Shown piece by piece: positions 1,559 to 19,532 of a stretch of 19,532 nucleotides of DNA. Position 1 is the stretch's first letter, and the number at the start of each line of letters is the position of its first letter. The DNA is taken from NCBI GenBank assembly GCA_048885865.1, contig JBHLLF010000047.1, positions 1 through 19,532 on the forward strand. Direction: 5' to 3'. The notes under the pieces are model-generated. The model had not been told where the DNA came from and made no database searches. It saw only the letters and a program-made list of their open reading frames with translations. This DNA comes from Candidatus Hermodarchaeota archaeon (lineage in GTDB: Archaea > Asgardarchaeota > Thorarchaeia > Thorarchaeales > Thorarchaeaceae). A program made the translations under genes and the position numbers.

Positions 1559-3603
1559 TGTGTTGCCCTCCTCAACCATAGAGAACCGTTTCTCTTCTGC
1601 TGTCCTTCCCATTCCGGCGCAATGTATATTGTAGTATCTAGTTGCTCAACTATTGCAGGACCCAAAACTTTCTGGTGAAGAGCAAGCTTCCCGCGCCGAA
1701 ATATGTCGGTTTCAACTCTTTTGGATACTCCAACAACCACTTCCCTGGAGTCAACCGGCTTGCCATCGCCATCAATCGATGGCTTTGAAAACTTCCATTT
1801 TGACTGCGGAGATCTTGCTGTGACTCTTGCCGTGACCCACTGAATCTCTCGATCCTTCATTCTGTAGCCATAGCTTCTTTCATGCGCGCTTTCAAAGCCC
1901 TTTGCTGAGGTTCCGGTGATGTCCTTGGCATCAAGCGGCACTGTAACATTGATTTCATGGGATTGGCCTTTGTATCGCATATCGACTGACCATTGAAGAG
2001 CAATGTCTTCTTGAATAGCTCCCTGCTCGAGAAGATGAGCTTGGGCCTCCTCAGACAGTTCCTCTAGAATCTCCCTGATTCTCTTCGAAGACGCATCATT
2101 GCCAGTTATCATCCCTGTCCTCATCACGTCAACACGAAGGTCTGCACAAATGAGACCCAAGGCTGAGGTGATACCAGGATTCGGGGGAACAAGGATCGTA
2201 TCAATCCCTAAAGCAGATGCGATATCGACAGCCTGAGTGGGTCCAGCTCCTCCGAACGGCACAAGGACAAAGTCACGAGGATCTCTCCCTCTCTCAACAG
2301 TGACTTCTCGAATCGCTTGAACCATGTTGTTGGTTGAGATTCTTATGATTCCCAGAGCAGTTTCATCCAATGACATATCAAGGCTGTTGGCGATTCTCCT
2401 CAGAGCCTCTGAAGCATTCTCTTTGCTAAGGCTGATTTTCCCTCCTACAAAGAAATCTGGATTCAGTCGACCCAATATTAAATTGGCATCAGTTATAGTC
2501 GCGTCTGTACCTCCCTGTGAATAGGATGCAGGTCCCGGGTCCGCTCCCGCACTTTGTGGGCCGACATGTAGCACCCCCGCGCGGTCAATCCATGCGATGC
2601 TCCCTCCCCCAGCTCCAATTGTCTTTACATCTACTGATGGCATTCTAACAGGAAGTCCCCCAACTTCATTATCTGGTCTTACTATCACATGATTCATGAT
2701 GGCGCTAATATCGCAAGATGTGCCCCCCATGTCTAGAGTGATCGCTTGATTGACTCCTCCCTGTTTTGCGATCTCCCAACCTCCTATCACACCTCCAGCA
2801 AGCCCCGAAATTGCCAGCCCTATAGCTCCTCCATGGGTCTGTGAACAGAGAACAGTGCCTCCATTGGATTGCATTACTGTAAGCTTTGTCTTGGGGCAAA
2901 CTGCTCTGATTGAGGTGTCCAAACGGCTAAGATAATCCAGAACTAACGGACCCAAATATGCCTCAAGCACTGTAGTGGATGTCCGTTCATACTCACGAAA
3001 CTCAGGAAGGACCTTTGATGAAGCAACTATGTAGGTGTTTTGGACTCCCCGAAGCGCCTCCAATAATGCTACTTCGTGCTTGGAGTTCAAGTATGAGAAA
3101 AGAAGAGATATCGCTACTGAGTCAGGCTTTCTATCATTTACTAGTGACTTTACCCTCTGAATTTCTGCGTCTGCAAGGTCAATAATTGGGGTGCCTTCAC
3201 TATCAAGACGCTCTGCCACACCAATACGATCGTCACGGTCAACAAGCGGCTTGGGCCTTGCCGCAGTGAAGTCATAAATCTCCACTCTATTCTGTCTTCC
3301 AATCTCTAGAACATCTTCCAGTCCACTTGTAGTTAACAGAAGAACATCAGCGCCTTTCCTTTGCAACATGGCATTTGTTGCCACGGTTGTCCCGTGCACC
3401 ACAAGAGTCACATCTTCAGAGTCGATCCCATGATCAGACAGAATCTCCTCTATCCCTGCTAGGACAGCCAAATCCTGAGAGCCCGGAGTAGATGGTATTT
3501 TGTGAACATAGCTGTGGCCTATGGCTGTGTTGGAAACTATGATATCAGTGAATGTGCCGCCCACATCGACACCTATTACTATCATCTTACTGCTTCTGGT
3601 CAT
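1555..3603 (-). CDS. hyuA: Hydantoinase A / 5-oxoprolinase family subunit A, 682 aa
   Basis: Motifs GVDVGGTFTD, HGTTVATNA, EFREYERTSTT, MQSNGG, DMGGTSCD, IGAGGGSIAW, GPQSAGADPGPA, TDANLILG, FGGAGP and DMRYKGQSHE. Translationally coupled to subunit B. Confidence 0.95.
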   Translation of the reverse strand: MTRSSKMIVIGVDVGGTFTDIIVSNTAIGHSYVHKIPSTPGSQDLAVLAGIEEILSDHGIDSEDVTLVVHGTTVATNAMLQRKGADVLLLTTSGLEDVLEIGRQNRVEIYDFTAARPKPLVDRDDRIGVAERLDSEGTPIIDLADAEIQRVKSLVNDRKPDSVAISLLFSYLNSKHEVALLEALRGVQNTYIVASSKVLPEFREYERTSTTVLEAYLGPLVLDYLSRLDTSIRAVCPKTKLTVMQSNGGTVLCSQTHGGAIGLAISGLAGGVIGGWEIAKQGGVNQAITLDMGGTSCDISAIMNHVIVRPDNEVGGLPVRMPSVDVKTIGAGGGSIAWIDRAGVLHVGPQSAGADPGPASYSQGGTDATITDANLILGRLNPDFFVGGKISLSKENASEALRRIANSLDMSLDETALGIIRISTNNMVQAIREVTVERGRDPRDFVLVPFGGAGPTQAVDIASALGIDTILVPPNPGITSALGLICADLRVDVMRTGMITGNDASSKRIREILEELSEEAQAHLLEQGAIQEDIALQWSVDMRYKGQSHEINVTVPLDAKDITGTSAKGFESAHERSYGYRMKDREIQWVTARVTARSPQSKWKFSKPSIDGDGKPVDSREVVVGVSKRVETDIFRRGKLALHQKVLGPAIVEQLDTTIYIAPEWEGQQKRNGSLWLRRATQ

Positions 3604-3634
3604 TCATGAGATAAGAACGCTTGGGACTCTTTGG

Positions 3635-4621
3635 TCATTTGGCATTCCAGTAGTAGTAAACAGAATTGTGGATGGATTGGAATCCAAATTGCTTGTAGAG
3701 ATTCATAGCCGGGGTGTTCAAGATATCCATCTCCAAGGCGACTTTCTTGAACCCTTGTAGTCTTATGGAAGCCATGCTCCTTGCAAGAAGATTGCGGGCA
3801 ATGCCCTTGCCTCTATGCTTCGGAAGGACTCCAATTGGCCCCACATGCGCTTTCCCTTCCTCCTCTCTCACTACAATGAATCCAGTCACTCTATCATTAT
3901 CTATCACGCACAGTGTGGCGTCGTCAACAAACTGTCTTGTTCTACTGAACCAATAATTGAAGGAGTCTATTTGCTGGTCTTTTGTCAGAGAAAGAAAAAG
4001 ACCATCTTTGCTATCCAAGAATGAGTCGAAGAACGGTTCGAAGAGGTCTTCATTGCTGACCTCGGAAATTGGTTTGATTGTAAGGCCATCCAATTCATTA
4101 AACTTAGGCATTTTGTCAGTGATTGCGGCTTCCATGTAGGTTTCTTCCGTTGCATATCGAAATCGTTCTTCCCTATACCAACCCTCATATCTTTGGAGAA
4201 GTGGTCTGATCCTACTTGTTACTTTGTTGAACTGAACCTCCAGTCTCTCCTTTCCCATTCTCCTTGTTGCCTTCTTTGCCTCCCGAATCAGCTTCCTCGC
4301 CACAACTCCGTAGCTATCACTTGGCAAGACCTCAGGATGCCACTCTCCAATGAAGACCATCCTCGCAAATCCTGTGTAAAGGCTGAGCCAACCCAACAAA
4401 TCGTCTGACCTATCGGACATGCAGAGAAGCACCTTCAGATTGTTATCGTCTGTGGCTGCGTCAAGTGCTTCTTTGAATCTCGCAACCGAAAGATCAGGGC
4501 TCCCTCTCTCTGAAGCCTGTCTTGCTTGGTATGCCACTTTTGCCAATGCTGCGGTATCAGCATCTCTCATTGAAGCGACCTTTATGCGCAATGATTTCGC
4601 CCCGCCTGCTTTTCTTGACAT
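3635..4621 (-). CDS. Tandem (double-domain) GNAT N-acetyltransferase, MshD-like architecture
   Basis: The C-terminal half has the acetyl-CoA motif A (IGVLPKHRGKGIARNLL) and motif B (LEMDILNTPAMNLYKQFGF). The N-terminal half is a degenerate GNAT fold (EVLPSDSYGVVARKLIREA...WYREERF). 328 aa. Confidence 0.85.
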   Translation of the reverse strand: MSRKAGGAKSLRIKVASMRDADTAALAKVAYQARQASERGSPDLSVARFKEALDAATDDNNLKVLLCMSDRSDDLLGWLSLYTGFARMVFIGEWHPEVLPSDSYGVVARKLIREAKKATRRMGKERLEVQFNKVTSRIRPLLQRYEGWYREERFRYATEETYMEAAITDKMPKFNELDGLTIKPISEVSNEDLFEPFFDSFLDSKDGLFLSLTKDQQIDSFNYWFSRTRQFVDDATLCVIDNDRVTGFIVVREEEGKAHVGPIGVLPKHRGKGIARNLLARSMASIRLQGFKKVALEMDILNTPAMNLYKQFGFQSIHNSVYYYWNAK

Positions 4622-4721
4622 ATTGCATCAAGCTGATAAGGTTGTCCCCTATTTCACTTCCCCTTGGAAATGATTTATTCGTGAACATCAAGTCAAATTG
4701 TCTGTCCCGAGGATCCTTGAT

Positions 4722-5906
4722 ATGAGTCCAGATTACTCCGAAGTTCTTGTCAGATATGGCGAAATTGGAATTAAATCCAAACAGACGAGAAAGCGCATGG
4801 AAGATCTGCTAATCAGGCACATCAAGGCGGCACTGCTGGAGGCTGGTGTTGAGTTTACCAAAATCCGTAGGGAGTACGGGCGCATTTTTATTGTAACTGA
4901 AAGGACGCAAGAAGCGAGCATAATTGCTGCAAACATATTTGGAATTGTGTCCGTTTCTCCTGTAGTTGTGATTCAATCCAACCTAGATACTATTCTTGAG
5001 ACTGGTCTTGAGATGGCTGGGAAAACCTTCGCCAAAAGCAAATCTTTTGCAGTCGGTTCTAGAAGAGTTGGAACACATGATTACTCTAGTCAGGATATCA
5101 GGGAGAAGCTTGGTGCTGCAATCCTTACAGGTCTTCCAGAGTTAGAGCTCGCGGTTGACCTCACATCCCCAGAGCAGTCAATCTATGTTGAGGTGAGAAA
5201 TCAGAGGGCCTACCTCTTTACAGACACAATCGAAGGAGTAGGGGGAATGCCAACTGGGTCTCAGGGAAAGGTGGTTTGTACTCTATCAAGCGGTCTGGAT
5301 TCTCCTATCGCCGCCTTCAAGGTGATGAAGCGGGGATGCCTTCCCGTGTTTGTCAACTTTGACAACACGCCTTACGCCAATAATGACTGCAGCGCCACAG
5401 TAACAGAGCAGGCGCAGCTACTGGCAAACTACATCCACAACTTCGAGGTCAAGTTGTACATTGTCCCCCATGGGGAAGATCTCAGCCAGGCTGAAACCCA
5501 TGGCCCTCCGAAAATGACCTGTATATTCTGCAAGAGGAATATGCTGAGAATGGCGAGAGAGATCGCTATCATAGAGGATGCAGATGCAATCGTCACTGGC
5601 GAAATTATCGGAGAGCAGGCCTCCCAGACTACAACGAATCTCAGAGCAATCAATACTGCAGTCTGCGACTTTCCTATACTCCGGCCATGCGCTGGGGATG
5701 ACAAATCAGACATTGAAGCTTTGGCTCGGAAGATTGGGACTTACAGGTTTGCAGAGGAAGGTCTATCTTGCTGCACACTTGCACCGAAATATCCAGTGAC
5801 TCGAGGAAAATCTGACGAGGTCGAAAAAGCGGAAGAGAATATGACCTTGGATGTTTTGAAGAAGCAAGTTGATCAAGCACGCATAATCACACTGAGAACG
5901 GGATAG
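4722..5906 (+). CDS. thiI: tRNA 4-thiouridine(8) synthase ThiI (THUMP + PP-loop, no rhodanese domain)
   Basis: N-terminal VLVRYGEIGIKS, THUMP region (FAVGSRRVGTH...VDLTSPE), GVGGMPTGSQGK, PP-loop LSSGLDS, CIFCKR, VTGEIIGEQASQT, PILRP, IGTY. ATG 4722 preferred; the in-frame TTG at 4698 is an alternative start. Confidence 0.93.
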   Translation: MSPDYSEVLVRYGEIGIKSKQTRKRMEDLLIRHIKAALLEAGVEFTKIRREYGRIFIVTERTQEASIIAANIFGIVSVSPVVVIQSNLDTILETGLEMAGKTFAKSKSFAVGSRRVGTHDYSSQDIREKLGAAILTGLPELELAVDLTSPEQSIYVEVRNQRAYLFTDTIEGVGGMPTGSQGKVVCTLSSGLDSPIAAFKVMKRGCLPVFVNFDNTPYANNDCSATVTEQAQLLANYIHNFEVKLYIVPHGEDLSQAETHGPPKMTCIFCKRNMLRMAREIAIIEDADAIVTGEIIGEQASQTTTNLRAINTAVCDFPILRPCAGDDKSDIEALARKIGTYRFAEEGLSCCTLAPKYPVTRGKSDEVEKAEENMTLDVLKKQVDQARIITLRTG

Positions 5907-6005: not shown

Positions 6006-6058
6006 TCGTCCAGCTACGAACAGCCCCAGTGTATGCGAAATACGCGGAGAGAGAAGCG

Positions 6059-6295
6059 TTGCCAAGGTCAAGAAAAGACAGGATTATACCAGTAGCACCC
6101 GTAGACAGACTAATCAGAAAAGCAGGTGCCGGACGAGTCAGTGACAAGGGTGCAGAGCGACTAGCACAGATTCTTGAAGAGATTGGTGAGAATCTGGCCA
6201 AGCGGGCATATGAGCTCACGGACCATGCTGGACGCAAGACTATAACTGAAAAGGACATGGACCTTGCGTACAAGCAATGGACACGTGGGACCTAG
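6059..6295 (+). CDS. Archaeal histone (HMfA/B-type single histone fold)
   Basis: IPVAPVDRLIRKAGAGRVSD...LAQILEE...ELTDHAGRKTITEKDMDLA aligns by eye with HMfB (LPIAPIGRIIKDAGAERVS...HAGRKTIKAEDIELA). Start is either TTG 6059 (GGAG 6046-6049 upstream) or GTG 6029. Confidence 0.95.
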   Translation: MPRSRKDRIIPVAPVDRLIRKAGAGRVSDKGAERLAQILEEIGENLAKRAYELTDHAGRKTITEKDMDLAYKQWTRGT

Positions 6296-6374
6296 TTGGA
6301 CCTAGACGAGAGATGAGTTCAGAGAAGAGTGGTGTTCATCTAGCTACAGAGTGCCACTATAAGGGGGGGGCTGA

Positions 6375-7064
6375 GTGAGCAAGGGACCGCGCTATGTTGA
6401 GGATGGAATAGCCATTCTTTCTCTACATGATGTGAGCCCTGCCTTTGAGGATGATGTTGTCGCGACATACGACATGTTGATTGACCTCGGAATTTCAGAT
6501 TTCACTCTGCTCGTGACTCCCATGTACGCACTCAAGAAGTCCAATAGTCTTGAGAACAGTCCTCTCTTCTGCGAGTTTCTCGCATCTTTAGATTTGGAAA
6601 TATCCCTTCATGGATATAGCCATTTCACAAAATCTGGCTCGATGGATGAGTTCCAGAAAATGGATAGAGACCGTGTCCTTCCCAGGATGAAATCTGGAAA
6701 GGCATTGATTTCTGACCATATCGGGAAGAACCCGGTAGGATTTGTGCCCCCATTATGGAAAGCACCCCAGCGGGTTGCTGGCGCGGCGCAAGATGCAAGG
6801 ATGAGCTATTGTGCAATAGGCAACAGCATTCATCGTTTTTCTGACTCTTCGGTCTTGACCACGGCTGACTTGCTTGTCAGTCAAGGTATGAAATCGACAT
6901 CGTTCACCAATCAATTGCTGGAGATAGAATTGGGTGGCTCGGTTCAAGTAGGTGTTCACCCTCGTGATCATCACGAGAATAGCGTTTTTGATATGCTTGC
7001 CGACATGAAGGATCGGCTGGACTATCAATTTGTGGGATACCACTCCTATCTCTTCAAGGCTTAG
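6375..7064 (+). CDS. DUF2334 / polysaccharide deacetylase (CE4, NodB-homology) family protein
   Basis: LSLHDVSP (motif 1), EISLHGYSH (metal-binding H-x-x-x-H), GFVPPLW (motif 3) and C-terminal VGVHPRD. No signal peptide. 229 aa. Confidence 0.8.
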   Translation: MSKGPRYVEDGIAILSLHDVSPAFEDDVVATYDMLIDLGISDFTLLVTPMYALKKSNSLENSPLFCEFLASLDLEISLHGYSHFTKSGSMDEFQKMDRDRVLPRMKSGKALISDHIGKNPVGFVPPLWKAPQRVAGAAQDARMSYCAIGNSIHRFSDSSVLTTADLLVSQGMKSTSFTNQLLEIELGGSVQVGVHPRDHHENSVFDMLADMKDRLDYQFVGYHSYLFKA

Positions 7065-7273
7065 GGGCACATCTAGTAAAACCATCCGCGAATCTCTTTG
7101 TAGTAAACTCATTAGCATTATTCGAGTTGTCGAAAAAGCGTCAAGGGCGATTGTCTGAAGAACCATATTGGCACGCCATTGTTTATTATGTACGAGTGTA
7201 ATCCATCAACCTGCTCAGCACCACCGGCTGCACGCTAGTGACCATGTCGGAGTCATGAGAGAGGATTGGCAAT

Positions 7274-7281: not shown

Positions 7282-10200
7282 ATGCCTTTGAGGAAAGGTA
7301 GTTTCTTAGCTATATTCTTAGTCTTGCTGTTTGTAGCACCCGCAAATAATGGACATTCACCGTTGGTCAATCCTGCATCAACCTACAGTCCATATGAGAA
7401 CGATGGGGACACGCCGTTTAGCTACTTGGCTGGAGATAGCATGAGCGGCTCTGGAGATCCTCTATCTACCTATGTATCTGGGATTCTTGAGAATAGCACC
7501 GCTGCACAAATTGACTCATCAACATCAGCTACAAGTTCTTTGTCAGTTCCGAACGGCTATACAGGCACCAGTTTGGATGTTGATGTCGATTCGTTATCAA
7601 TGACGGTGACGGATAATCTTCGCAATCCCTCCTTCACCACTTGGCATGATGAACGATGGCATGTAGGAAATAGTATCAACTTCTACGATGATATTATTGA
7701 TGTGCCTGATTCCTGGACTTTGGTGAAGTCCGTCAATTACGATGATGCCCATCCTCTGCATGGTGATTGGGAACTCAACGACTATTCCGGTGGTTATGGT
7801 GGAAGTCGCGCATGGCGATTTGAGGCAACAATTGGTAGTAGCGATCCACTCACCCCTGATGATGCAATTTACTTGAGTCAGTTTCTGCACGCTCCATGGC
7901 GCGACCTCTATGAGATTCGAATCAGTTTCTATTACTACGTTCTTTCCACCTCTGATATGTACGACCAAGTTCATCTATTCTTCAAGCTAGGTGATTTAGC
8001 CGAAGAGAAATTCAATGTCTTCGAGTTTGGTGACACAACCGACACATGGATTCGCGAAACTGTGACATACACATCAGCTGACCTCTCATCCGTGACGGTC
8101 CCTGATTCTTTGCTTTTCAATATTGGACTTGCTACCGATGTTTCTGGCCCGTTGGGTACATACCGAGAAGCCTTCGTATACATAGATGAAGTTGAGATAG
8201 AAATGGATGTGCGCCCATATCCTGAGCAAATAGGTCTAAGTGCTAACAATACAGCTGTGGTTGGGTCCATTGCTGGAAACTTCTCTACATTCGTTCCTGA
8301 TAACGACGGGCGTGACTGCTGGGACTACTCTACGCAAGGTATCGATTTGGATGGGTACAATAATGACGGTCGACCTGAGTTTGGTCTTTGGGGGACCTTC
8401 TGGAATACCTCAAGTCCATACGAGCTCGGGCTGCAGTTCCCCTTGGATATTCCCAAGGGTGCTGTTATCGAGAATGCATATGTCGAGATTCAATCTGCAG
8501 GTGGATCGGGAGTTGTTCAGGGAAGAGTCCACCTATCTAGTGAAATGGCCGGGGGTGGAGCTATCGAGTCATTTACTTACTATGACCTAATTGGAGGATA
8601 CCATCTGGAGGACACCTATACATGGTTGGCTGCCAGTTACGATTGGCAATTGTCTGCATGGACTAATGGAGTCCGATACGCTACTCCTGATATCGCGCCA
8701 CTGCTACAGAATGTGGTTTCTTCAGCTGATTGGTCAAGTGGCCAATATGTCGCTTTCATGGTCAGCTACATGTGGTCAACTTACTATCAATATTATAACA
8801 ACATCAGAGGATCTATCTATGATACCAACGACGCAGATGACAATGCTCGGCTTTATGTGTCATATCGAGTACCTTTGGCAGAAGATGTTGTATTAGTGGA
8901 CCGAGAGGAAGCTCGTCGGACTCTTAAGTACAAGAAGGACATAACTGTTGACTACACGAAGGTTGCTGCTGACCTCACTGATTTTCCTCTATTGATTGAT
9001 ATCATCGATACAGACCTTCATACTGATGTCTTTCCGGGTGGAGATGACATTGCTTTCATGGTAGATGGTCAATTTGTGGAGCATGAGATAGAGTTCTTTG
9101 ACCAGAATTATAGTCCAACAGAGGCACATCTCGTAGCGTGGGTAAAAGTTCCATTCCTATCAAGTTCAACAGACACAATCATCACTATGTTGTACGGAGG
9201 ATCTGATGCTCGGAGTCTAGAAACAAAAGGTGTCTTTGCTGATTACGAGATAGTCCATCACATGAATGAAGCGCCAAATGGAACGCTAGTTGATAGCTCG
9301 GGGAATTTGCATTATGGTTATTCAATTGGAGGCATGACTGATACACAAAGCGTAGCAGGAGCTATAGGAAGTTCAATCAACTTCGACGGATCAGATGATG
9401 CAATCACGGTTGGTCAAATCGACACCGATGAGTGGCCTTCTTTCACCGTTACTGGATGGGTAAGCCAAGACGTGGTTGGGGATGATCGTATCTTTTCCAA
9501 AGCGCCAAACACAGACGGAACTCAAGCTATAATTCATTTTGCAATTAATGGCGCCACCGCGTTCAGAGTTCGTATGAACACTGATGGCACGGGAGGTGGT
9601 GCCTCAGGTTCAGTGGACGCAACTACATTGACGACTCCAGGCAACTGGGTCTATTTGGCGTGGTCTTGGAGTGCAGCAACTGCGTCAATGCGTCTTTATG
9701 TAAACGGAACATTTGACAGGTCTGTGGCCAGGGATGGAGATACGGTATTGGATTCAATCCTTCCATTCGTGATCGGTAACTGGCAGACAGGTCCATACGA
9801 CAACCGTTTCTTCGACGGGAAGATAGACGAGATTCGGATGACACAGATGGTGTTGTCTGATGGCTGGATCGAAACGGAGTTCAATAACCAACTTGATCCA
9901 TCCACCTTCTATTCTGTGGGCTCTGAACAATCCAACGCGGCAACTCCTGATGTGACTTATGCTTCAGTTCAATTCACAACAGGCTCTTCAATCCCAGTAA
10001 ATCTCGGATTTACACTCGCCCTAGACTTCGAGGGTTTTGGAAAATCTCTTGATGAGAACTTCAATGAGGGAACTACCTTCCATGCTGTTAATGGTAGTAG
10101 CACTGTTTCATGGATAGCCAAGGTTTTGGTGTCCCCCCTCCCCAATGTAGCCAAGATGGAGGTCCAAATAAGCTATCCAATGACCGAGTGGCGGCCCACA

Positions 10201-13200
10201 TCTGTCACCAATCCCATAGGCGTATCAAAGAGCTATCCAGCTGATTGGACCTACACAGGAGGAGTACTGACTCTTCTGCCTGCCGCAGTGGATGTATATG
10301 GAGTCTGGACCTTGGAGTTTGAGGGGCTCAACTATCTGAGTGATTTACAGCTTGGAGTATTTGGCGGATCACTATCTTCGACCGCAGAATTCCAGACAAA
10401 CCATACAATGCAATTTGAAGGAACTTCCCTATGGCATGCCGGGTCGGCAACCCAGCTCTATCTAACGGATCCAACGGGATCTGCCTGGAGTACACCCATC
10501 ACTCATCCCACGGCTGGAAGTGACACCCATGAGATTCCGTCATTTCAATACAGTAAAGCAATCACCATTGATAATACGAAAGTATACGACGATGTTGTCA
10601 ACTTCCCATTCCTTCTAGATTTCACAGATGCTAATGTGGATGATAGGGCTCAAGCTGATGGTGACGACATTCTATTTGTTCAGAATGGGGTTGTCATTCC
10701 CCACGATCTTGTGGAATATACCGTAGCAGCAGGGTCTGCTCACATTGTAGCTTGGGTTCGAGGCAACTTGTCCAATTTCGTGGACACAGACATCACCATG
10801 TACTACGGTAACTCAATTGTTGGACCACAGGAGCAGCCATCAGCCGTGTGGGGTGAAGAGTATGTTGGTGTCTACCATCTGGAGGAATCTCCCACTGGTG
10901 CAAAAGGAGAGATACTTGACTCTACCACCTACGGAAACGATGGAACAACAGAAGGATCCATGAACTCAGCAGACCTAGTTGATGCAATGTTTGGCAAGGG
11001 CCTTGATTTCGACGAGATCGATGACTTGATACGATTAAAGGACGACGCGAGTCTGGACACTGTCGCAACTGCAGGAACTATCCAACTGTGGATTTGGTGG
11101 GCCAATGCAGCTGATGGTGAATGGCAGAATATCATGGATACGAGCAATCGATTCAATGGCAATCCGAATGATGGATTCGAATGGGCGCAACAAAATGACG
11201 GTGATCACTTCTTCTACCCGTGGGCCGGAGTTGGTTCAGATTATAATCTGGGAACGAATCCCTTCACTAATCAGCAATGGCACCATCTAGCAGTTACCCT
11301 CAATTACGCGACAAAGGAAGTGAAGATGTACGTAGATGGGAGTGCCATCACTCTTACAATTCAGCAGGCTCCAGTATTCTGGACTCAAATCGCAAATCCT
11401 GGAGATTGGTTATGGGGTGGTGACCCAGACCAGCCACTGCGATATTTCGACGGAATGTTTGATGAAATCAGAATTGCTAATGTGGAACGCTCAGCAGGTT
11501 GGCTATTCACTGAGTTTGTTAATCAGGACAATCCAACAGCCTTCTACAACAATATCGGGTCAGAGCAACCGCGTCAGATATACAACTCTACATTCGTGAA
11601 GGCTCTCGATAACACAGCTGCCGCAGGAGTGTGGACCGCAACTGCCTTCTTCAACGATTCTGGAAGCGCAGTCGATTATAGCGTTGGAATCTACGAACGA
11701 GAGTTCATTGTTAAGCATGATACATCATTGACATTGCAGGAACCAAGTGATGCAGTTGGAGATCGCCTTACTGTTACCACAGCAGGCGAGTGGATTTATG
11801 TCGAATATGAGCTGACTGACGATATCACGGCAGCAGGTGTGCCTGATGCGACAGTTACCTTGAATTGGACCGTGTCTGGTGCTCCGACTCAGATCACATT
11901 GGATGATTTTGGTACTGGCACCTATGGCAAGATGTTGAACACAAACAACCTAAGGACAGCTCAGCGATGGCGTGTCAATCTTCAATCCACCCATCAGTTC
12001 TACAATGATGCAACCGAGTACTTCAATGTGGATCTATACCATCAAACGAATCTCAATTACGGCGATGTGACAACAACTCCAGCTGATGTTGACTTCACCG
12101 CAACACTGACGTTTACAGACATATATGATGGTTCTCCAATTGTTGGTGCGGAAATAACATTGGATGGTAGTCCTGTGACCCACATTGACTTGGGTCAAGG
12201 GAAGTATAGCGTGTCCATTCCTACTGGGGCTCTCAGTCTAGGTCAACATTGGTACATCTTCAATGCGACGCTGTCGGGGAGCTATCTTGAGATGGCCAGT
12301 GTCAACATCACCTTCACCCTAAGGCAGCACTTCACCTCTGTCAATATCCAAGGCGACTTGGTTCAGCCATATGGTTTCAATACACAGTTCGATGTGATAC
12401 TCCTTGACCTTGACACAGGAGGTACTGTCCCACTTAGTGCTGTGAGTCAATTCTCATTTGACCCTGCATCCTATGGCATCCAAACTAGACCGGGGACTAG
12501 CTATAGCATCACTTTGACGACAAACACTTGGGATGTAGGTACAGAATCCGTGACTCTCACAATTACTATGGCTAACATAAAGTACGCAACTCCTCAGGCC
12601 TATTCCTTTGATATTACAATAAGACTACGCCATACTTCAGTTTCAGTCTCCGGATCATTTGTTCAGCCTTATGGCAATCTGACGCCATTGAGTGTGTACC
12701 TCTGGGACCATGATGCATTGGAAGTTGTTCCGATAGGCGAAGTTAGTACATTGATGTTCATGTGGCCGCCTAGTGATTCTGAAACTTTCAATAGTCCAAG
12801 CAGCTATGACGTTGTTCTTGACTCCTCTAACTGGGATGTTGGAAAAACCACTGTGACTCTTGTGGTCAATGTAGTGACAAGCGGTAAATATCTCAATCCT
12901 ACTAATTTTGTGTTTAACATTGAGATACGTAGCAGGTCTACAGTACTCTATCACGATCCATCTGACTTGGTGTTTGCCGAAGGAAGTGACTTCTGGATTG
13001 ATCTCCGTGTGAATGTAAGTGAGCCTGGGACTAGCTTCGGATCGCCTGTCACTGGACTCACTCAAGGAGAGTTTTCAATTACTGGTGGATATCTATTCAC
13101 TATTGATACAACAGAGAATGGAATTGGACGATACAGACTGACTATTCCATACTCTGAATTAGGACCAGGGATCTTCACAATAACTATCTACCTGTTTCCA

Positions 13201-16200
13201 TCGGATGCTAGTCATGGTGATGCACAAGTCACTGTTCGTTTCTTCTATGCAGAGGTCCAGACATCTCTTACATCACCCACTCATCCTCAGGTGACAACTC
13301 CTTTTGCCACTGATGTTCAGATAACTCTAAACTATACCGATATCGAGAGCGGACTCGGCATACCGGGTGCAACAATCACCAATACTAGTATCAACATCTA
13401 CGGGCTTGTTGACCAGGGCACAGGTATCTACACGCTATGGCTTGATGTTACTGGTCTTGCGGAAGGCACTCATGCATTCAGCCTAGGGGCTGTTAAAAAT
13501 GGATATGAGGCGCGCTCTCTCTCGTTCACAGTCCGAATTCGAATTGCATATACTTATGCGATTCCTTCTATTGGCGCTCTTGACATACCGATTGGCAACT
13601 CGCCTGTCTTCTACGTCGATTATTGGGATATTGACCACGATGTGCCGGTTGACAACTCCTCTGCACCATACACGCGAGTTTTGTCTACCTGGCACAACTT
13701 CTCTGTTGTCTACATCCCTGCTCAGGAGAGATATCAAATAACCTTCAAGACTTCAGATTCAGACTCTCTTCAAAGCAATACTGTATGCACCTTCAACTTC
13801 TCTAGAGGATCCAACTACCAATTTGGCATATTCACAATCACTTTTTCAATAAGAACTCACAACACTGATTTCCGATTAACAAGCGCAATTCAGCCAACAA
13901 GTAATGTGGGGACAATTAACATCTCTGTCTACTATGGGGATTTAGACAATAACTTCGGCGTTGATTCAGTTAATATTGCATTCAGTGTGGAAAATGTCAG
14001 CGGCACAGTAGTTTCAAGCAGCCTATCCTTGGGGGGAGGCTTCTACGTAATTCAGGTCGCAGCTGATCAATTCGGCCTAGGCGTTCAGACATTCACTGTC
14101 TATGCAGATTGGATGGGACCCTTTGCGAAGTACCAGAACAAGAACTTTGCCACAACTGCAAGTATAGTGGGACTAGAATCTGCTTATACGCTATATGAAG
14201 CATCAGCGCCCACTCCATATCTAGAAATCATGAGCTACAAGTTCTTCTATAGTGAGCTCAGTGGAATAGGAATAGACAATTTAACCGGAAATGTGTTCGT
14301 CTATGTTTCTTTCCAAGGCGAATCTGTAGACCTCAGTCAGGTGGCCATTTTCGATTATTCTCTAACTCAACCTGGCAACTACTCCATCCAGTTCAACACC
14401 TCAATCTTCGATAGAACTGGCATCATTAACATGAACGTCTTTGTCAATTGGTCAAAAGGTGTTGCACCATTCTATCAGAACCGAACTGACATTGTCACTC
14501 TGCGTGTTCTACCCCGTGATACATTGGTATCAGTCGTGCCTCCATCTCCGACGAGCTACCTGGAGATGGCCTCCTTTGCCTTTAACTACGAGGACATTGC
14601 AGGAGTAACTAGCAGTCTGATCTATGATTCCCCGTCACTCACAATATCGTCTAATGTGACATTCTCAGTATCAGAAACCGATGGGACATTTACTTTCGAG
14701 TTCAACACATCACAGTTTGGAGCCCTCGGAAAAAGGGCCCTGCTATTGGATGTGATTTGGGCTGGCTCGCCATTCTATTTGAACAGAACCGGTATCATAG
14801 TATACATCACTGTTGTTGAGCGACAGACATTTCTTGAGTATCTTGCTCCTGCACCAACTCAATATAATGACAATGTTCAGTTCAATGTCACATGGACTGA
14901 CATTACAGGTGGAGCGTCTGATGGCATTATTGGAGCGACGCTTGCGCTATTTCAGGGTGCGACTCCAATAAATCCCATTTACTACAGTTGGTTGGATATT
15001 GGCGGAGGCATCTATTCTGTTGACCTAAGCGCTTCGTATAATCCTCCAGGCCAATACAGTCTAAGGGTCGAGATGTCAATAGGACTCTTCTACATTTCAG
15101 ACTCAACTGTCAATCGTCAATTCACAATACGGGAACGCATCACTCTACTATCTGCAGAACCAGTCAGAGACGTGCCCTATAGCTCAGATGTCGAAATCAT
15201 CCTATATTACCAAGACCTATTTACAACTAGCTCAATATCCAATGTTACCGGCGCTGTCACCTTTGAGATTCTTAATCCTGGCATTTGGAATTTCGTGATT
15301 AGCTATAACTCTGTAAATCAATACTATCAGCTAAGTGTCACTACGTCCGACCATCCTGAGTTGCTCATTGGAGTAACATACACATTCAATCTTAGAATGA
15401 CCTACGACTCCATCGCACCGTACTATGCCAGTGATGGACTTTTCGTAGACTACGAGATACGCATAAGGGAATCTACCATTGAGCTGGACACAGCTCCAAC
15501 TTCCACTGCTTATGATAATGACGCAAGCTTTGCTGTATACTATGAGGATGCAGATGCACTAAGCGGAATAGCAGGCGCAGACATATCGGTATATCTCAAT
15601 GGTACTCAGCTAATTGAGAATACTGAGTACACCATGAGTGAGGGCTCCGCAGGGCTCTATCTGTTCGATGTGGACACAGGCGCATTGGCAGGTCTTGGCC
15701 TTAATACTCTGGTAGTTTATGCGAATTGGCTGGGCACTCCTTATCATGAGAATCTGACAATCAGTGTTGGGATAGTTGTACGTGAGCGATCCACAATAAT
15801 TGAGTTTACTCAACCACCAGCCAGAACCGAATACCTTGATGATGTGACCTTCAAATTTGTCTACAAGGACCTAGACACTGGCACTGCAGGCGGTACTCCT
15901 GTTCTTGGTCTCACAAAGACCGAAGTCCGACTCTATTATGAGAACGGGACAGAGATACCCTCTCCATATTTCTCATTGACCCCTGATGGCTCTGCGTATG
16001 AGATAGTCGTCAGTTCAGCAATTCTCAGTGCAGTTCTTGATAATGCCTACTCTCTGAGAGTGGATGTCGATTGGGACATCGGAACTGCACCATACTATGA
16101 GGATGATTCCACAACGCTCAGAGTCACAGTAGTGGGCCGGTCGATGTTTGTCGATCCTGCAACAATCGAAACCACTCCAATCACAGGTCCAGGCGATACA

Positions 16201-19200
16201 GAAACCATGTTTGTGAACTTCACAGTCAGTGATGCCAGCAATGGCAATCCCATTTCAGGAGCCATCATAGTTTTCACTTGCGTAGAACAGCCCATCTTCA
16301 TATATGCTCTAGACGAGCCCCAAGCGGGACAGTACTCAATTGAAGTCGATACTGCAAGTCTGACTGTTGTATATGGTCCCAACACATATCATTTTGAACT
16401 ACGGGTTCAATGGAATCCATCAATTTCTCCATACTACAGCAATCGGTCCGCAATTGTATTGACAGGAATCGTCGACCGTGTGCTGACGAATCTCCAAGCG
16501 GGAGCCCCGAATCCCGCAGCACCGTACTTTGGTCAAAATGTGTCGTTAATTGTCACCTACACTGATGAGGATCATTCCTCCATAGGTATTAACTTTGCAA
16601 CCATAAGTGTGGTCTATGATAAAACTGGCATTCCAGTGCTAGGTCTAGATGTAGTTGGCATTGGCTCTGGAGAATATAACATAACTTTCAACACTGGAGA
16701 TGTTTCCAGTCCTGGTTCCTATGTTCTTAGAATAACTGCTATGAAGACGGGTTATACATCTCTTGTGGTCCGACCTACTATAACAGTGCAGGAAATTCCT
16801 ACAAGGCTTGATTTGCATGAAATTTCATATCCAGTCTATTGGAGGAATACGACCAAAATTGGGGTTAACTTCACTGATACCTTCAACAATCTCCCCATAT
16901 TTGGTGCAAACGTGTATTGGAGCTATAAGAACTTCACAAACCAGCCATTTACAGACATGGGAACAGGCGAATACTATGCTGATATTGATGCAAACATTGA
17001 TAATATCGGTACATGGGTTCTGACAATCCGAGCTACCCAGTCTACCTATCAAATAGCGACTGCAACAATAACTCTCGTTGTTCTACCTCTGCCTAGTGAC
17101 CTGCAAATCAGAGAACCAACTGAAGCTGTTAAGGATGTACCACGTGGTGATCCTGTAAACATTACGGTCTACTTACATGATGTATTCAACAATCTGGCAA
17201 TAGAGAAAGAATATGTGGACAGGGTCTACATCTTATTCCAAGGCTCCCAGTACGAAATGTATGAACATAGTAATGGCTCTGCAGGCTATTACCAAGGGTT
17301 TATTCCTGGAGCGATAACAGGAGTGCTTACCCCTCGTGCATATGATGTGCGAGTGACAGCTCAATTCAGAAACTATGAGCTCGCAGTCAGTCAGTTTGGC
17401 ATTTACATTCAACAGACAACAACTGTGGTTCAGATTTGGGATCACGATTTGTCGGAATTCACAGATGGGACCATCTTTATTGAAGCTGTGTATCTTGAGG
17501 AAGTGAATTTCACGCTACAGGTGACAGCTCCCTCGCTAGCTTTCAGAATAAATGAGTCATTTGTGAACTGGTTTGAATCCAGATGGAGCATAAACTATAC
17601 TTTCACCTTCAAAGGCAATGGCATCTTCGAATTGATGTTCAACACCTCAGAGGCATCATATGGTACTTGGGGTCTTACATTTACCTCAATTCCAGATGAC
17701 AAATTCTTTGCTGAAGATGCTCTTCTTGTGACATTAGTTATCAAGAAGATACCTACTGAGGTCCTCCCACCCATCATGACAGAACGGATTTGGGGGTGGA
17801 AGGGTAATCTTAGTTTCTACTACAACGACACTCACTACAATCGAGGAATTAGGAATGCAACGGTCACCTATGATTACTATACAATACAAGGCCTCCAAGG
17901 AATAGACCTTGGCAATGGATCTTATCTGATATATATCGACACTACGATTCTTATCCCAAGTCCGAATCTGAGATATCCTATTCTAATCGTATTTGATCAT
18001 GAAGGCGACTATGAAAGTAGAACAATTGGAGTGCAACTTACTGTGCTAGAGGTCCCGACTGAGATACTAACATCCATTACTGGAGCGACAGGTGGCTTTA
18101 TTCAGGAGGTTCGCGGCGTTAGATATTATGAACTCCAAGTGGCATTCGGTGGAGATATTGACTTCGAGTTCTTCTATAATGATACCGATAATTCAGATGG
18201 ATATGTTGGTGGTCTAGCTGGCTCAAGCACAAACCTGACTGAACTCTATGGGGACAATATGGATGCTGTGGTACCATTCTTGACAGATATCGGAGATGGG
18301 AGATATACTTACGCTTTCAGCACCATGAGTATATGGCTGTTCAATCGGATTGGTGGAATTCCTGGAGCGAGTCCAGACAATCCTTACACCTTCCGAATCT
18401 CGCTTTGGATTGCCAACAGAACATATAGGACAGTGGAGATTAAGATAAGGATTATTGAAGTACCTACTTCCATTGATGTCGTGGACTTCAATTTTGACAT
18501 TGGATATGGTTCCGAGGGCCATATTACTCTTCAATATTGGGATGAATGGAATAATCTACCCATAACAGGCGCAAACTTGACTGCTAACACGCTTAATCGC
18601 TTTGTCGAGATTACAGCAACTGCGGAAGATTCTACGCCTGGACAATATACAATTCGTTTCATTGGTAGCGCAGGATTGCTGGACATATTCAGGCAGGAGC
18701 AAGAAGCAACCATTGTCTTTGATATATACAAGGATAACCATCAACTCCGAAGCGAAATTGACTTGGATATTAGCCTTATAGCCCACGTTTCACTCACGCC
18801 AATGGAAGCAGCGATTAGTACCTATGGATTCTACCTCATACCCTTGAGTATAGTAATGATGATGCTTCTTGGAGCCTACGTGAGGGTGTGGAGTGTACCA
18901 AAGAGAATCCGGCAGATAAATGGCCAGATTAAAGCAATACGCAAGGGCAAGATACCCAAGCCAATTTCTGATGTTCTGAGCAGGCAGGAGCTAATTGCCG
19001 GCCTCTTCAATGACACCTACCTCGAGCTGAAATTGAAAAGAACTCCTTCACAAATGCCTGAGGAGTCTATCGATATAGCTGTGCCCGAGATGGGTGAGCT
19101 GCTAATTCAGTTGGCAATCCTCACCAACCTAAGTGCTGAAGAGCTGGAGGAATTCCAGGCTGACATTTCCAAGATGCGGATGAGTGAACAGGCCGCCTTT

Positions 19201-19532
19201 GTCAGAGAAGTCATCATGCAAGAGGCAGTTCGCGCCGCTCGAAGAGAAGGCAAGACACCCGAAGAGATCATTGAGCAGGTAAGAATGGAAGCTCTCCGCA
19301 GGGTTGGTGGCGAAGAAGGTGTTATCGATGCGGGTCTGGCTGTCAAAGAAATGGAGGAAGAGTCCGTGCGAATAGTGGCTGAAGAGAAGCCTAAGAAGGA
19401 GGTCGGACCTGATGTTGCTCCCCCAGAGGAGGAACCGTCTGCTCCTGGCGACAAGCTCAGTCAATTTGAGCTAGAGGAACTTCGAAAGGAGCTAGAATCT
19501 CGAGGCGTGCCTCCACATGAGATCGACACCAT
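7282..19532 (+). CDS. Giant (>=4,080 aa) single-pass cell-surface protein with 2x DUF2341+LamG, about 22 Ig-like repeats, a TM helix and a cytoplasmic domain; 3'-truncated by the window
   Basis: Frame +1 is open from the stop at 7156-7158 to the window end: I saw no stop in the parts I translated, and the track lists no terminated frame-1 ORF there. Signal peptide MPLRKGSFLAIFLVLLFVAPA; DUF2341 and LamG motifs; Ig-like repeats; TM YGFYLIPLSIVMMMLLGAYV followed by basic RVWSVPKRIRQ. Start may be ATG 7282 or TTG 7288 (ATG 7255 is also in frame). Confidence 0.92.
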   Translation, partial: MPLRKGSFLAIFLVLLFVAPANNGHSPLVNPASTYSPYENDGDTPFSYLAGDSMSGSGDPLSTYVSGILENSTAAQIDSSTSATSSLSVPNGYTGTSLDVDVDSLSMTVTDNLRNPSFTTWHDERWHVGNSINFYDDIIDVPDSWTLVKSVNYDDAHPLHGDWELNDYSGGYGGSRAWRFEATIGSSDPLTPDDAIYLSQFLHAPWRDLYEIRISFYYYVLSTSDMYDQVHLFFKLGDLAEEKFNVFEFGDTTDTWIRETVTYTSADLSSVTVPDSLLFNIGLATDVSGPLGTYREAFVYIDEVEIEMDVRPYPEQIGLSANNTAVVGSIAGNFSTFVPDNDGRDCWDYSTQGIDLDGYNNDGRPEFGLWGTFWNTSSPYELGLQFPLDIPKGAVIENAYVEIQSAGGSGVVQGRVHLSSEMAGGGAIESFTYYDLIGGYHLEDTYTWLAASYDWQLSAWTNGVRYATPDIAPLLQNVVSSADWSSGQYVAFMVSYMWSTYYQYYNNIRGSIYDTNDADDNARLYVSYRVPLAEDVVLVDREEARRTLKYKKDITVDYTKVAADLTDFPLLIDIIDTDLHTDVFPGGDDIAFMVDGQFVEHEIEFFDQNYSPTEAHLVAWVKVPFLSSSTDTIITMLYGGSDARSLETKGVFADYEIVHHMNEAPNGTLVDSSGNLHYGYSIGGMTDTQSVAGAIGSSINFDGSDDAITVGQIDTDEWPSFTVTGWVSQDVVGDDRIFSKAPNTDGTQAIIHFAINGATAFRVRMNTDGTGGGASGSVDATTLTTPGNWVYLAWSWSAATASMRLYVNGTFDRSVARDGDTVLDSILPFVIGNWQTGPYDNRFFDGKIDEIRMTQMVLSDGWIETEFNNQLDPSTFYSVGSEQSNAATPDVTYASVQFTTGSSIPVNLGFTLALDFEGFGKSLDENFNEGTTFHAVNGSSTVSWIAKVLVSPLPNVAKMEVQISYPMTEWRPTSVTNPIGVSKSYPADWTYTGGVLTLLPAAVDVYGVWTLEFEGLNYLSDLQLGVFGGSLSSTAEFQTNHTMQFEGTSLWHAGSATQLYLTDPTGSAWSTPITHPTAGSDTHEIPSFQYSKAITIDNTKVYDDVVNFPFLLDFTDANVDDRAQADGDDILFVQNGVVIPHDLVEYTVAAGSAHIVAWVRGNLSNFVDTDITMYYGNSIVGPQEQPSAVWGEEYVGVYHLEESPTGAKGEILDSTTYGNDGTTEGSMNSADLVDAMFGKGLDFDEIDDLIRLKDDASLDTVATAGTIQLWIWWANAADGEWQNIMDTSNRFNGNPNDGFEWAQQNDGDHFFYPWAGVGSDYNLGTNPFTNQQWHHLAVTLNYATKEVKMYVDGSAITLTIQQAPVFWTQIANPGDWLWGGDPDQPLRYFDGMFDEIRIANVERSAGWLFTEFVNQDNPTAFYNNIGSEQPRQIYNSTFVKALDNTAAAGVWTATAFFNDSGSAVDYSVGIYEREFIVKHDTSLTLQEPSDAVGDRLTVTTAGEWIYVEYELTDDITAAGVPDATVTLNWTVSGAPTQITLDDFGTGTYGKMLNTNNLRTAQRWRVNLQSTHQFYNDATEYFNVDLYHQTNLNYGDVTTTPADVDFTATLTFTDIYDGSPIVGAEITLDGSPVTHIDLGQGKYSVSIPTGALSLGQHWYIFNATLSGSYLEMASVNITFTLRQHFTSVNIQGDLVQPYGFNTQFDVILLDLDTGGTVPLSAVSQFSFDPASYGIQTRPGTSYSITLTTNTWDVGTESVTLTITMANIKYATPQAYSFDITIRLRHTSVSVSGSFVQPYGNLTPLSVYLWDHDALEVVPIGEVSTLMFMWPPSDSETFNSPSSYDVVLDSSNWDVGKTTVTLVVNVVTSGKYLNPTNFVFNIEIRSRSTVLYHDPSDLVFAEGSDFWIDLRVNVSEPGTSFGSPVTGLTQGEFSITGGYLFTIDTTENGIGRYRLTIPYSELGPGIFTITIYLFPSDASHGDAQVTVRFFYAEVQTSLTSPTHPQVTTPFATDVQITLNYTDIESGLGIPGATITNTSINIYGLVDQGTGIYTLWLDVTGLAEGTHAFSLGAVKNGYEARSLSFTVRIRIAYTYAIPSIGALDIPIGNSPVFYVDYWDIDHDVPVDNSSAPYTRVLSTWHNFSVVYIPAQERYQITFKTSDSDSLQSNTVCTFNFSRGSNYQFGIFTITFSIRTHNTDFRLTSAIQPTSNVGTINISVYYGDLDNNFGVDSVNIAFSVENVSGTVVSSSLSLGGGFYVIQVAADQFGLGVQTFTVYADWMGPFAKYQNKNFATTASIVGLESAYTLYEASAPTPYLEIMSYKFFYSELSGIGIDNLTGNVFVYVSFQGESVDLSQVAIFDYSLTQPGNYSIQFNTSIFDRTGIINMNVFVNWSKGVAPFYQNRTDIVTLRVLPRDTLVSVVPPSPTSYLEMASFAFNYEDIAGVTSSLIYDSPSLTISSNVTFSVSETDGTFTFEFNTSQFGALGKRALLLDVIWAGSPFYLNRTGIIVYITVVERQTFLEYLAPAPTQYNDNVQFNVTWTDITGGASDGIIGATLALFQGATPINPIYYSWLDIGGGIYSVDLSASYNPPGQYSLRVEMSIGLFYISDSTVNRQFTIRERITLLSAEPVRDVPYSSDVEIILYYQDLFTTSSISNVTGAVTFEILNPGIWNFVISYNSVNQYYQLSVTTSDHPELLIGVTYTFNLRMTYDSIAPYYASDGLFVDYEIRIRESTIELDTAPTSTAYDNDASFAVYYEDADALSGIAGADISVYLNGTQLIENTEYTMSEGSAGLYLFDVDTGALAGLGLNTLVVYANWLGTPYHENLTISVGIVVRERSTIIEFTQPPARTEYLDDVTFKFVYKDLDTGTAGGTPVLGLTKTEVRLYYENGTEIPSPYFSLTPDGSAYEIVVSSAILSAVLDNAYSLRVDVDWDIGTAPYYEDDSTTLRVTVVGRSMFVDPATIETTPITGPGDTETMFVNFTVSDASNGNPISGAIIVFTCVEQPIFIYALDEPQAGQYSIEVDTASLTVVYGPNTYHFELRVQWNPSISPYYSNRSAIVLTGIVDRVLTNLQAGAPNPAAPYFGQNVSLIVTYTDEDHSSIGINFATISVVYDKTGIPVLGLDVVGIGSGEYNITFNTGDVSSPGSYVLRITAMKTGYTSLVVRPTITVQEIPTRLDLHEISYPVYWRNTTKIGVNFTDTFNNLPIFGANVYWSYKNFTNQPFTDMGTGEYYADIDANIDNIGTWVLTIRATQSTYQIATATITLVVLPLPSDLQIREPTEAVKDVPRGDPVNITVYLHDVFNNLAIEKEYVDRVYILFQGSQYEMYEHSNGSAGYYQGFIPGAITGVLTPRAYDVRVTAQFRNYELAVSQFGIYIQQTTTVVQIWDHDLSEFTDGTIFIEAVYLEEVNFTLQVTAPSLAFRINESFVNWFESRWSINYTFTFKGNGIFELMFNTSEASYGTWGLTFTSIPDDKFFAEDALLVTLVIKKIPTEVLPPIMTERIWGWKGNLSFYYNDTHYNRGIRNATVTYDYYTIQGLQGIDLGNGSYLIYIDTTILIPSPNLRYPILIVFDHEGDYESRTIGVQLTVLEVPTEILTSITGATGGFIQEVRGVRYYELQVAFGGDIDFEFFYNDTDNSDGYVGGLAGSSTNLTELYGDNMDAVVPFLTDIGDGRYTYAFSTMSIWLFNRIGGIPGASPDNPYTFRISLWIANRTYRTVEIKIRIIEVPTSIDVVDFNFDIGYGSEGHITLQYWDEWNNLPITGANLTANTLNRFVEITATAEDSTPGQYTIRFIGSAGLLDIFRQEQEATIVFDIYKDNHQLRSEIDLDISLIAHVSLTPMEAAISTYGFYLIPLSIVMMMLLGAYVRVWSVPKRIRQINGQIKAIRKGKIPKPISDVLSRQELIAGLFNDTYLELKLKRTPSQMPEESIDIAVPEMGELLIQLAILTNLSAEELEEFQADISKMRMSEQAAFVREVIMQEAVRAARREGKTPEEIIEQVRMEALRRVGGEEGVIDAGLAVKEMEEESVRIVAEEKPKKEVGPDVAPPEEEPSAPGDKLSQFELEELRKELESRGVPPHEIDT
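8926..9930 (+). other. DUF2341 + LamG (concanavalin A-like) cassette 1 within the giant CDS
   Basis: KYKKDITVDYTKV..DLTDFPLLID...GDDIAF...HEIEFF...AWVKVPFLSS..DTIITMLYG (DUF2341), then HHMNE..DSSGN..INFDGSDD..FTVTGWV..WVYLAWSW..LYVNG..FDGKIDEIR..WIETEFNNQ (LamG). Confidence 0.85.
10546..11565 (+). other. DUF2341 + LamG cassette 2 within the giant CDS
   Basis: FQYSKAITIDNTKV..NFPFLLD...DGDDILF...AWVR..DITMYYGN, then GVYHLEE..LDFD..TIQLWI..WHHLAVT..MYVDG..FDGMFDEIRIANVERSAGWLFTEFVNQ. Confidence 0.85.
11713..18795 (+). repeat. About 22 tandem, diverged Ig-like beta-sandwich repeats (about 95-135 aa each) within the giant CDS
   Basis: Recurring protein pattern R/P-x-T-x-L...PY...F-x-V-x-Y-x-D-x-D...I-x-GA...G-x-G-x-Y...T..L..G. 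Repeat starts counted by eye near 11713, 12040, 12322, 12622, 12928, 13252, 13540, 13852, 14170, 14515, 14821, 15136, 15466, 15787, 16138, 16477, 16795, 17089, 17413, 17749, 18052 and 18460. Confidence 0.75.
18823..18882 (+). other. Transmembrane helix of the giant protein
   Basis: 20 uncharged residues (YGFYLIPLSIVMMMLLGAYV) followed by R/K-rich sequence, consistent with the positive-inside rule. Confidence 0.85.

Follow-up and report, generated by a model that had tools for sequence, protein, structure and literature searches.

The end of the contig analysed here raises two questions: does its very long open frame encode one intact surface protein, and what would the large part of that protein left inside the cell be for? 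We know of no protein that connects Asgard surface structures to the cytoplasm. Asgard cells in culture lack an S-layer but show numerous surface densities that await explanation, and models of eukaryote origin give contact between cells a central place (PMC9834061). Earlier work has already reported giant membrane proteins of adhesin-like type in Asgard archaea (PMC8813620; 10.1101/2025.07.22.663070; PMC11573180). A giant adhesin is itself expected for Asgard archaea, and the new part is a conserved tail together with its candidate adaptor. With a probability of about 55%, we favour a stalked surface adhesin that would bind glycans and whose tail would dock a cytoplasmic adaptor.

The window, by which we mean the whole 19,532-nt stretch of DNA analysed (contig C47), contains a stop-free plus-strand frame from position 7159 to the contig end, with 4,083 codons from the ATG at 7282 (7282-19530) and zero N; the chance probability of a stop-free run this long is ~1e-96. 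The contig terminates at 19532, ~25 residues ahead of the stop, and this open 3' end is the sole reason why the gene is missing from the standard ORF list. A complete, colinear ortholog in Thorarchaeota TM1S.110 (G015, L022:803-13288) is 83% identical and ends 25 residues beyond, which puts the giant's tail at ~240 aa. The gene is covered by contigs from four sediment runs, all of one study that may be the source; they show neither indels nor joints, no single contig spans the whole gene, and the 40 substitutions listed from them comprise 26 synonymous changes, 14 missense changes and 0 stops. No RNA dataset was listed as containing the stretch. The complete colinear orthologs and the lack of indels and joints rule out an assembly artefact or a fusion; the gene is real and almost complete. 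Its true start may be the TTG at 7288 rather than the ATG at 7282, given that this codon lies 9 nt after GGAGG and agrees with the N-termini of homologs. No direct 3' continuation of C47 was found among the contigs of the same genome, in which contig C2 continues it by synteny and starts with the counterpart of a 3,181-aa paralog of G015. A sequence-only reading of the window had claimed a single stop-free frame of probable Asgard origin: the frame is confirmed, and all named relatives are Thorarchaeota or labelled Promethearchaeota. The same reading called the gene hidden, which is right in that the ORF list lacks it but not in the sense of a singleton, given that nine proteins of this genome bear the tail and the giant is one of these nine paralogs of a family-wide chassis.

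The features of the gene are collected in Table 1. Hydropathy exceeds 1.8 in just two segments of the protein, aa 3-21 (1.82, after the basic n-region and retained in homologs) and aa 3849-3867, and the latter is flanked by 0 K/R before and 9 after. By hydropathy and the positive-inside rule, the giant is anchored N-out by one TM helix. The head folds were taken from an AlphaFold model of aa 46-700 (pLDDT 83). The first matches the hyaluronan-binding module 4d0q (VIA Z 13.5, rmsd 2.8, 148 aligned) and CBM4-2 4bj0 (Z 12.1), and the second the chondroitin-sulfate CBM 8wab (VIA Z 14.9, rmsd 3.4, 168 aligned) and the alginate CBM 7vbo (Z 12.4), with weak NF033679 matches in 2 of 58 homologs. A CBM fold by itself does not prove sugar binding by the predicted heads. 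Pfam detects two Laminin_G_3 domains plus DUF2341. Cassette 2 is an insertion, with query 1064 to 1441 aligning with subject 1071 to 1096 of the paralog C8:25093, and the spacer has a weak MG2 match in one paralog. The stalk repeats are Ig-like by their language-model features, which match Big_3_5/MG4/MG2 clusters at 0.90-0.91. The whole visible protein holds 3 Cys.

Table 1 Coordinates of the giant gene and of the features predicted along its product
Feature	Window position (aa)	Strand	Basis or remark
Giant type I membrane protein	7282..19532	+	4,083 aa visible, ~4,108 aa complete; 3' end lost at contig end
Predicted N-terminal signal peptide	7282..7347	+	Basic n-region, hydrophobic h-region; start ATG 7282 or TTG 7288
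Head domain 1, galactose-binding-like CBM jelly-roll	7597..8214 (aa 106-311)	+	AF2 model, VIA
Head domain 2, DNRLRE/CBM96-like sandwich	8269..8868 (aa 330-529)	+	AF2 model, VIA; weak NF033679
Cassette 1, DUF2341 + Laminin_G_3	8926..9921	+	Pfam
Conserved spacer domain (first part)	10096..10494	+	Common to all chassis members
Cassette 2, DUF2341 + Laminin_G_3	10546..11550	+	Pfam; insertion relative to paralog C8:25093
Stalk, 22 Ig-like beta-sandwich repeats of ~100 aa	11776..18786 (aa 1499-3835)	+	Iterated profile
Predicted single transmembrane helix	18817..18888 (aa 3849-3867 by hydropathy)	+	Hydropathy, tail model
Juxtamembrane module J	18889..19047	+	Invariant Pro, basic amphipathic helix, Gly, connector, second helix
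Cytoplasmic module A	19075..19305	+	Three-helix unit plus extra helix, pLDDT >90, no catalytic motif
Acidic, disordered, poorly conserved linker	19306..19446	+	Tail model
Cytoplasmic module B, terminal three-helix unit	19447..19532	+	First 28 of ~50 aa visible

N-x-S/T sequons in the stalk are 2.0-fold over expectation (2.3-fold family-wide), an enrichment of limited value as a topology argument, given that the tail scores high too, from two conserved positions. Fourfold-site divergence between the giant and the G015 ortholog ranges from 0.08 to 0.70 along the gene, and this unevenness points to segment exchange; judged by divergence, the distal stalk is a putative recombination mosaic. At window positions 16880-18800 (aa 3201-3840), distal stalk identity to the G015 ortholog is 61%, against 86-98% in the flanks, and fourfold-site divergence is high.

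The giant shares its chassis with a family: head, 0-9 DUF2341-LamG cassettes, spacer, 4-49 Ig repeats, TM and tail. Heads and stalk length vary through cassette gain and recombination, and the tail is constant. It was found in 23 of 24 sampled genomes of the Thorarchaeota family by a single-sequence query and in 26 of 26 by a profile, and it is present in all 19 genomes of a Hermodarchaeia-like family (f12). Four giant paralogs (3,991-6,560 aa) with 1-9 DUF2341-LamG cassettes form two tandem pairs in this genome (G000 C8:25093-87479), with an LRR gene and a Ras/Roc-like gene between them. The spacer and Ig stalk also occur with other cytoplasmic ends (G000 C7:105748, C93:915, C6:21897, C91:221, C6:28189 and C13:51658), these being a longin-like-looking tail, a seven-TM segment or another helical tail; searches by sequence (Pfam, PDB) detected no longin identity for the C7 paralog's tail.

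Across genera of Thorarchaeia the locus keeps the order ThiI-like, histone, DUF2334, giant(s), RadA-like, GcvH-like, Cdc6-like, and no tRNA was found in the window or in 16 related loci; synteny across genera and the lack of tRNA mark a core locus, not a mobile one. Upstream, the window holds ordinary genes at 2-5906 (hydantoinase/oxoprolinase A and B, a GNAT acetyltransferase and the ThiI-like gene) and, at 6029-7064, an archaeal histone and a DUF2334 deacetylase, which lie directly upstream of the giant in most Thorarchaeia. In G015, G010 and G020 the giant is followed by a paralog of 3,140-3,190 aa (3,181 aa in G015). Wu et al. 2022 reported tandem genes for 3,000-6,000 aa in Thorarchaeota and the Aloposon proteins Otus and Ephialtes (PMC8813620). 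Their tandem giants have the same layout and are probably this family, for which that paper gives neither topology nor tail (PMC8813620). Tandem genes of 3,000-6,000 aa, as in Aloposons, occur at the giant's locus too. From gene context we rejected an Aloposon identity: the locus has no downstream tRNA, its upstream genes are ThiI-like, histone and DUF2334 with no MinD/ParA block, and it is syntenic across genera.

The heads and the deacetylase might together suggest a mast for nutrient capture, which would hold particles of polysaccharide or glycoprotein close to hydrolases and transporters at the cell surface while the tail organises that machinery. The nearest folds of the heads are indeed CBMs of polysaccharide lyases and hydrolases, and most genomes have the DUF2334 gene upstream, on the giant's own strand. 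However, the giant contains no catalytic domain and no transporter or hydrolase cluster surrounds it; the deacetylase best matches the GlcNAc-phosphatidylglycerol (glycolipid) deacetylase family, weakly and below cut-off, and in L040 the shared orientation is lost, the giant being inverted relative to histone/DUF2334. We regard such a mast as quite improbable. For a glycan-binding adhesin we counted the same head folds, which match CBMs of hyaluronan, chondroitin sulfate and alginate.

The tail was modelled (TM, J, A, linker, B) as a helical structure with a pLDDT of 84.5. By sequence identity, J+A is the best-conserved part of the giant, on par with core enzymes: compared with G020, from another genus, J+A is 77% identical, the ectodomain 30-60% and the neighbouring housekeeping genes 47-86%. 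The connector of J has 13 residues, including a near-invariant Arg. Module B occurs in 1 or 4 copies among paralogs and is probably a diverged repeat of A, the two being clear repeats of one unit in Hermodarchaeia-type members and B more diverged in Thorarchaeia. The tail shows no catalytic motif, and searches of Pfam, NCBIfam and PDB gave it no match at cut-off; NPxY and PDZ-binding motifs are absent from it, the ortholog terminating in basic residues. Fold searches returned no clear match (best E of 0.77 in Foldseek, best Z of 5.9 in VIA, TM no higher than 0.36 in the Atlas), which does not show that the fold is new. When modules A and B were considered as death, SAM or UBA/CUE interaction domains, the best VIA matches were generic three-helix bundles (Z 5.9), with the FAS death domain at Z 5.6 and a CUE-like match at Z 4.4. 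RecX, Pex14_N, PYRIN, MobC and MHJ_0274 were rejected as identities of the tail, every match being below cut-off. The giant protein has no NCBIfam match and ends in the ~240-aa folded tail, not in a sorting signal or a very short tail.

The architecture proposed by the sequence-only reading is reproduced here. Pfam, folds and profile return its domain order (signal peptide, CBM-like, DNRLRE/CBM96-like, two DUF2341-LamG, Ig repeats), and the repeats that it put at about 22 number exactly 22. Its single membrane pass agrees with the one internal hydrophobic segment and the charges around it, and its folded cytoplasmic tail with the helical model and the strong conservation of J+A.

A search of 1.84 billion proteins with the tail profile gave 203 clusters, and among the matches listed nearly all are C-terminal in long proteins; the named members among the clusters looked up are Asgard. 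The TM+J motif occurs in 103 of 151 Asgard genomes, on many unrelated surface proteins, and is absent from families f5 (0/13 genomes), f22 (0/7) and f14 (0/4). The tail was not found in f5, f14, f22 or f16, which are perhaps Heimdall-type, and a stalk query in five genomes of tail-negative families, a search run without a positive control, gave no match. Complete copies of modules A and B are confined to Thor- and Hermod-type genomes, so their partner may be something other than the adaptor.

The best candidate partner of the tail is a ~370-aa longin-like/winged-helix family. It is present in 16 of 16 Asgard families with the TM+J motif; 8 families have neither, 3 the adaptor only and 0 the tail alone. 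Given that these families are related, the co-occurrence is not independent evidence and may come from one shared loss in related lineages. The stronger point is gene adjacency: in five non-Thor families (f3, f21, f9, f4 and f13) the adaptor gene directly follows a J-tail gene on the same strand, an arrangement absent at the giant's own locus. In the Odinarchaeia-like G026 a 371-aa cytosolic gene comes after the tail gene, and the adjacent Odinarchaeia pair is at L083. This genome encodes three adaptor paralogs, at G000 C20:34055, C90:3224 and C52:7973, of which the C90 copy is one gene removed from a 724-aa protein whose J motif is weak, and none of its 8 full-length giant paralogs has an adaptor next door. 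The paralog nearest to the giant adjoins a longin-type small GTPase gene and lies 13.9 kb upstream on the opposite strand, outside any operon with it (measured via a 77-nt C52-C47 overlap), a distance that is similar in five relatives. A longin-like/winged-helix paralog, a small GTPase and coiled-coil proteins are clustered at G000 C52:6439-11894, which joins window position 1. The C-terminal winged helix matches HTH_20 in 15 and HTH_5 in 11 of 30 members, with E values reaching 3e-8, and is the one part confirmed by sequence search, which gave no longin match in the adaptor family. The gene that partners the tail in other Asgard archaea suggests a connection between surface and interior.

Such a partner, and the position of J, also bear on a signalling receptor, in which ligand or tension would shift the J helices and release or activate the partner as a regulator of transcription or of small GTPases. 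A helix-connector-helix lies directly under the TM in HAMP-like geometry (TM, Pro, helix, Gly, connector, helix), the ESM Atlas gives a faint HAMP-like feature score of 0.82, and 3 of 115 members give HAMP matches, all at E 0.06 or worse; the partner's winged helix is ArsR/TrmB-like (E 3e-8), and one partner paralog neighbours a small GTPase gene. HAMP homology of J is nevertheless not supported: the family search of the genome (PF00672) misses the tail, and a profile comparison of J with 9 HAMP domains gives 3% probability, out of register. At cut-off, Pfam, NCBIfam and PDB reveal no output domain of the kinase, MCP or cyclase type in the giant, and a flexible stalk of 22 repeats would be a poor conformational wire. 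We consider a signalling receptor unlikely, and to the earlier notion of a contact-sensing receptor the tail lends neither an enzymatic output nor HAMP homology.

A structural role is rather unlikely as well. The giants would then form a non-crystalline outer layer or glycocalyx that replaces the S-layer, with the tail as a module for membrane insertion, sorting or self-association and not as a dock for an adaptor. This would fit the dense sequons, the core, syntenic and multi-copy genes, the occurrence of TM+J on many unrelated surface proteins in the manner of a sorting signal, and the irregular surface densities without S-layer in cultured Asgard cells (PMC9834061; 10.1101/2025.07.22.663070). 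However, the variable lectin-fold cassettes at the tip suggest ligand choice, a folded 240-aa tail with amplifiable modules exceeds the needs of an anchor, and a coat leaves the gene adjacency to one cytosolic family unexplained.

For the favoured adhesin with a docked adaptor, the following picture can be drawn. The giant would be exported by Sec and anchored through its one TM helix with the N-terminus outside, and its 22 Ig-like repeats, at ~4-4.6 nm each, would place four lectin-fold domains ~90-100 nm off the membrane on a stalk that is probably glycosylated. Judging from their folds, the most likely ligands of these domains would be anionic polysaccharides or glycoproteins, whether on particles, in the matrix or on adjacent cells. 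Inside, the basic helix J may rest on the membrane and, with A and B, bind a common partner that would anchor, cluster or traffic the adhesins. The constancy of the tail under ectodomains of 0-9 LamG cassettes and 4-49 Ig repeats was counted for this adaptor dock. Actin is encoded in this genome, so a cytoskeletal link to the tail is possible. Neurexins, Ig-CAMs, integrins and cadherins are eukaryotic single-pass adhesion receptors whose tails bind adaptors, and tail and adaptor would here work together in the manner of integrin or cadherin tails and their adaptors, though not homologous to them. The likeness covers a lectin/LamG head, a repeat stalk, one TM and a non-catalytic conserved tail; in contrast, we found no sequence homology, and the giant has no disulfide Ig or EGF, no NPxY and no PDZ-type C-terminus. 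The likeness to neurexins and Ig-CAMs is thus architectural only, as the sequence-only reading had held.

More tentatively, at less than even odds, most non-Heimdall-type Asgard archaea may possess an ancient lectin-stalk adhesion system in which the J motif recruits a longin/winged-helix adaptor linked to a small GTPase, a functional counterpart of integrin- or cadherin-adaptor coupling to which Thorarchaeia and Hermodarchaeia added amplifiable three-helix modules. Through this family, some Asgard longin proteins and small GTPases that are now orphans would gain an anchor in the membrane. For eukaryogenesis, a caveat is that the tail is missing from the searches of several Asgard families (the four named above), and we found no eukaryotic homolog of it. 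The tail (~170-240 aa) is a small, soluble, expressible candidate link that comes with a candidate partner, so a connection between surface and cytoplasm can be tested in vitro without a Thorarchaeota culture.

Comparable giants are known from other systems. The cultured Lokiarchaeon Nerearchaeum marumarumayae has giant single-pass adhesin-like proteins, such as the 5,416-aa LOKIASV2_19760 (10.1101/2025.07.22.663070). Compared by description, in the available text of that source, they share with the giant an Asgard host, a signal sequence, a long beta-sandwich array, one membrane span and, in some, globular heads; the giant likewise shows the features listed by Nobs et al. 2025, a signal sequence (by hydropathy), an Ig/fibronectin-like repeat array and one membrane span. 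They differ in their Lokiarchaeia host, fibronectin-like repeats and WD40 heads, and the same text mentions neither a cytoplasmic domain nor a partner. Among the huge proteins of archaea no domain is commoner than Laminin_G_3, whose function is not understood (PMC11573180); the DUF2341 proteins encoded at archaeal type IV pilus loci have been proposed as adhesins (PMC4858521). The giant resembles both in being a very large secreted protein with Laminin_G_3 and DUF2341 close to its N-terminus; unlike them, it has a single-pass anchor, a conserved 240-aa cytoplasmic tail and no pilus genes nearby. In the literature searched, we found no description of the tail or its partner.

Parts of the tail also turn up outside the giants. 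On one contig only (L087:44-1069, P0109), a soluble protein without TM carries J+A on a helical domain. Module A alone occurs in a soluble protein on another single contig (L088:792-1349, P0149), which is 1.6 kb long, consists of short ORFs and may be a mobile element, with the lone module as a possible mimic. Minimal TM+J proteins with hardly any ectodomain are encoded at G000 C52:1953-2492 (180 aa) and L147:1501-1761 (87 aa), and these small proteins are possible decoys or regulators of the tail's partner.
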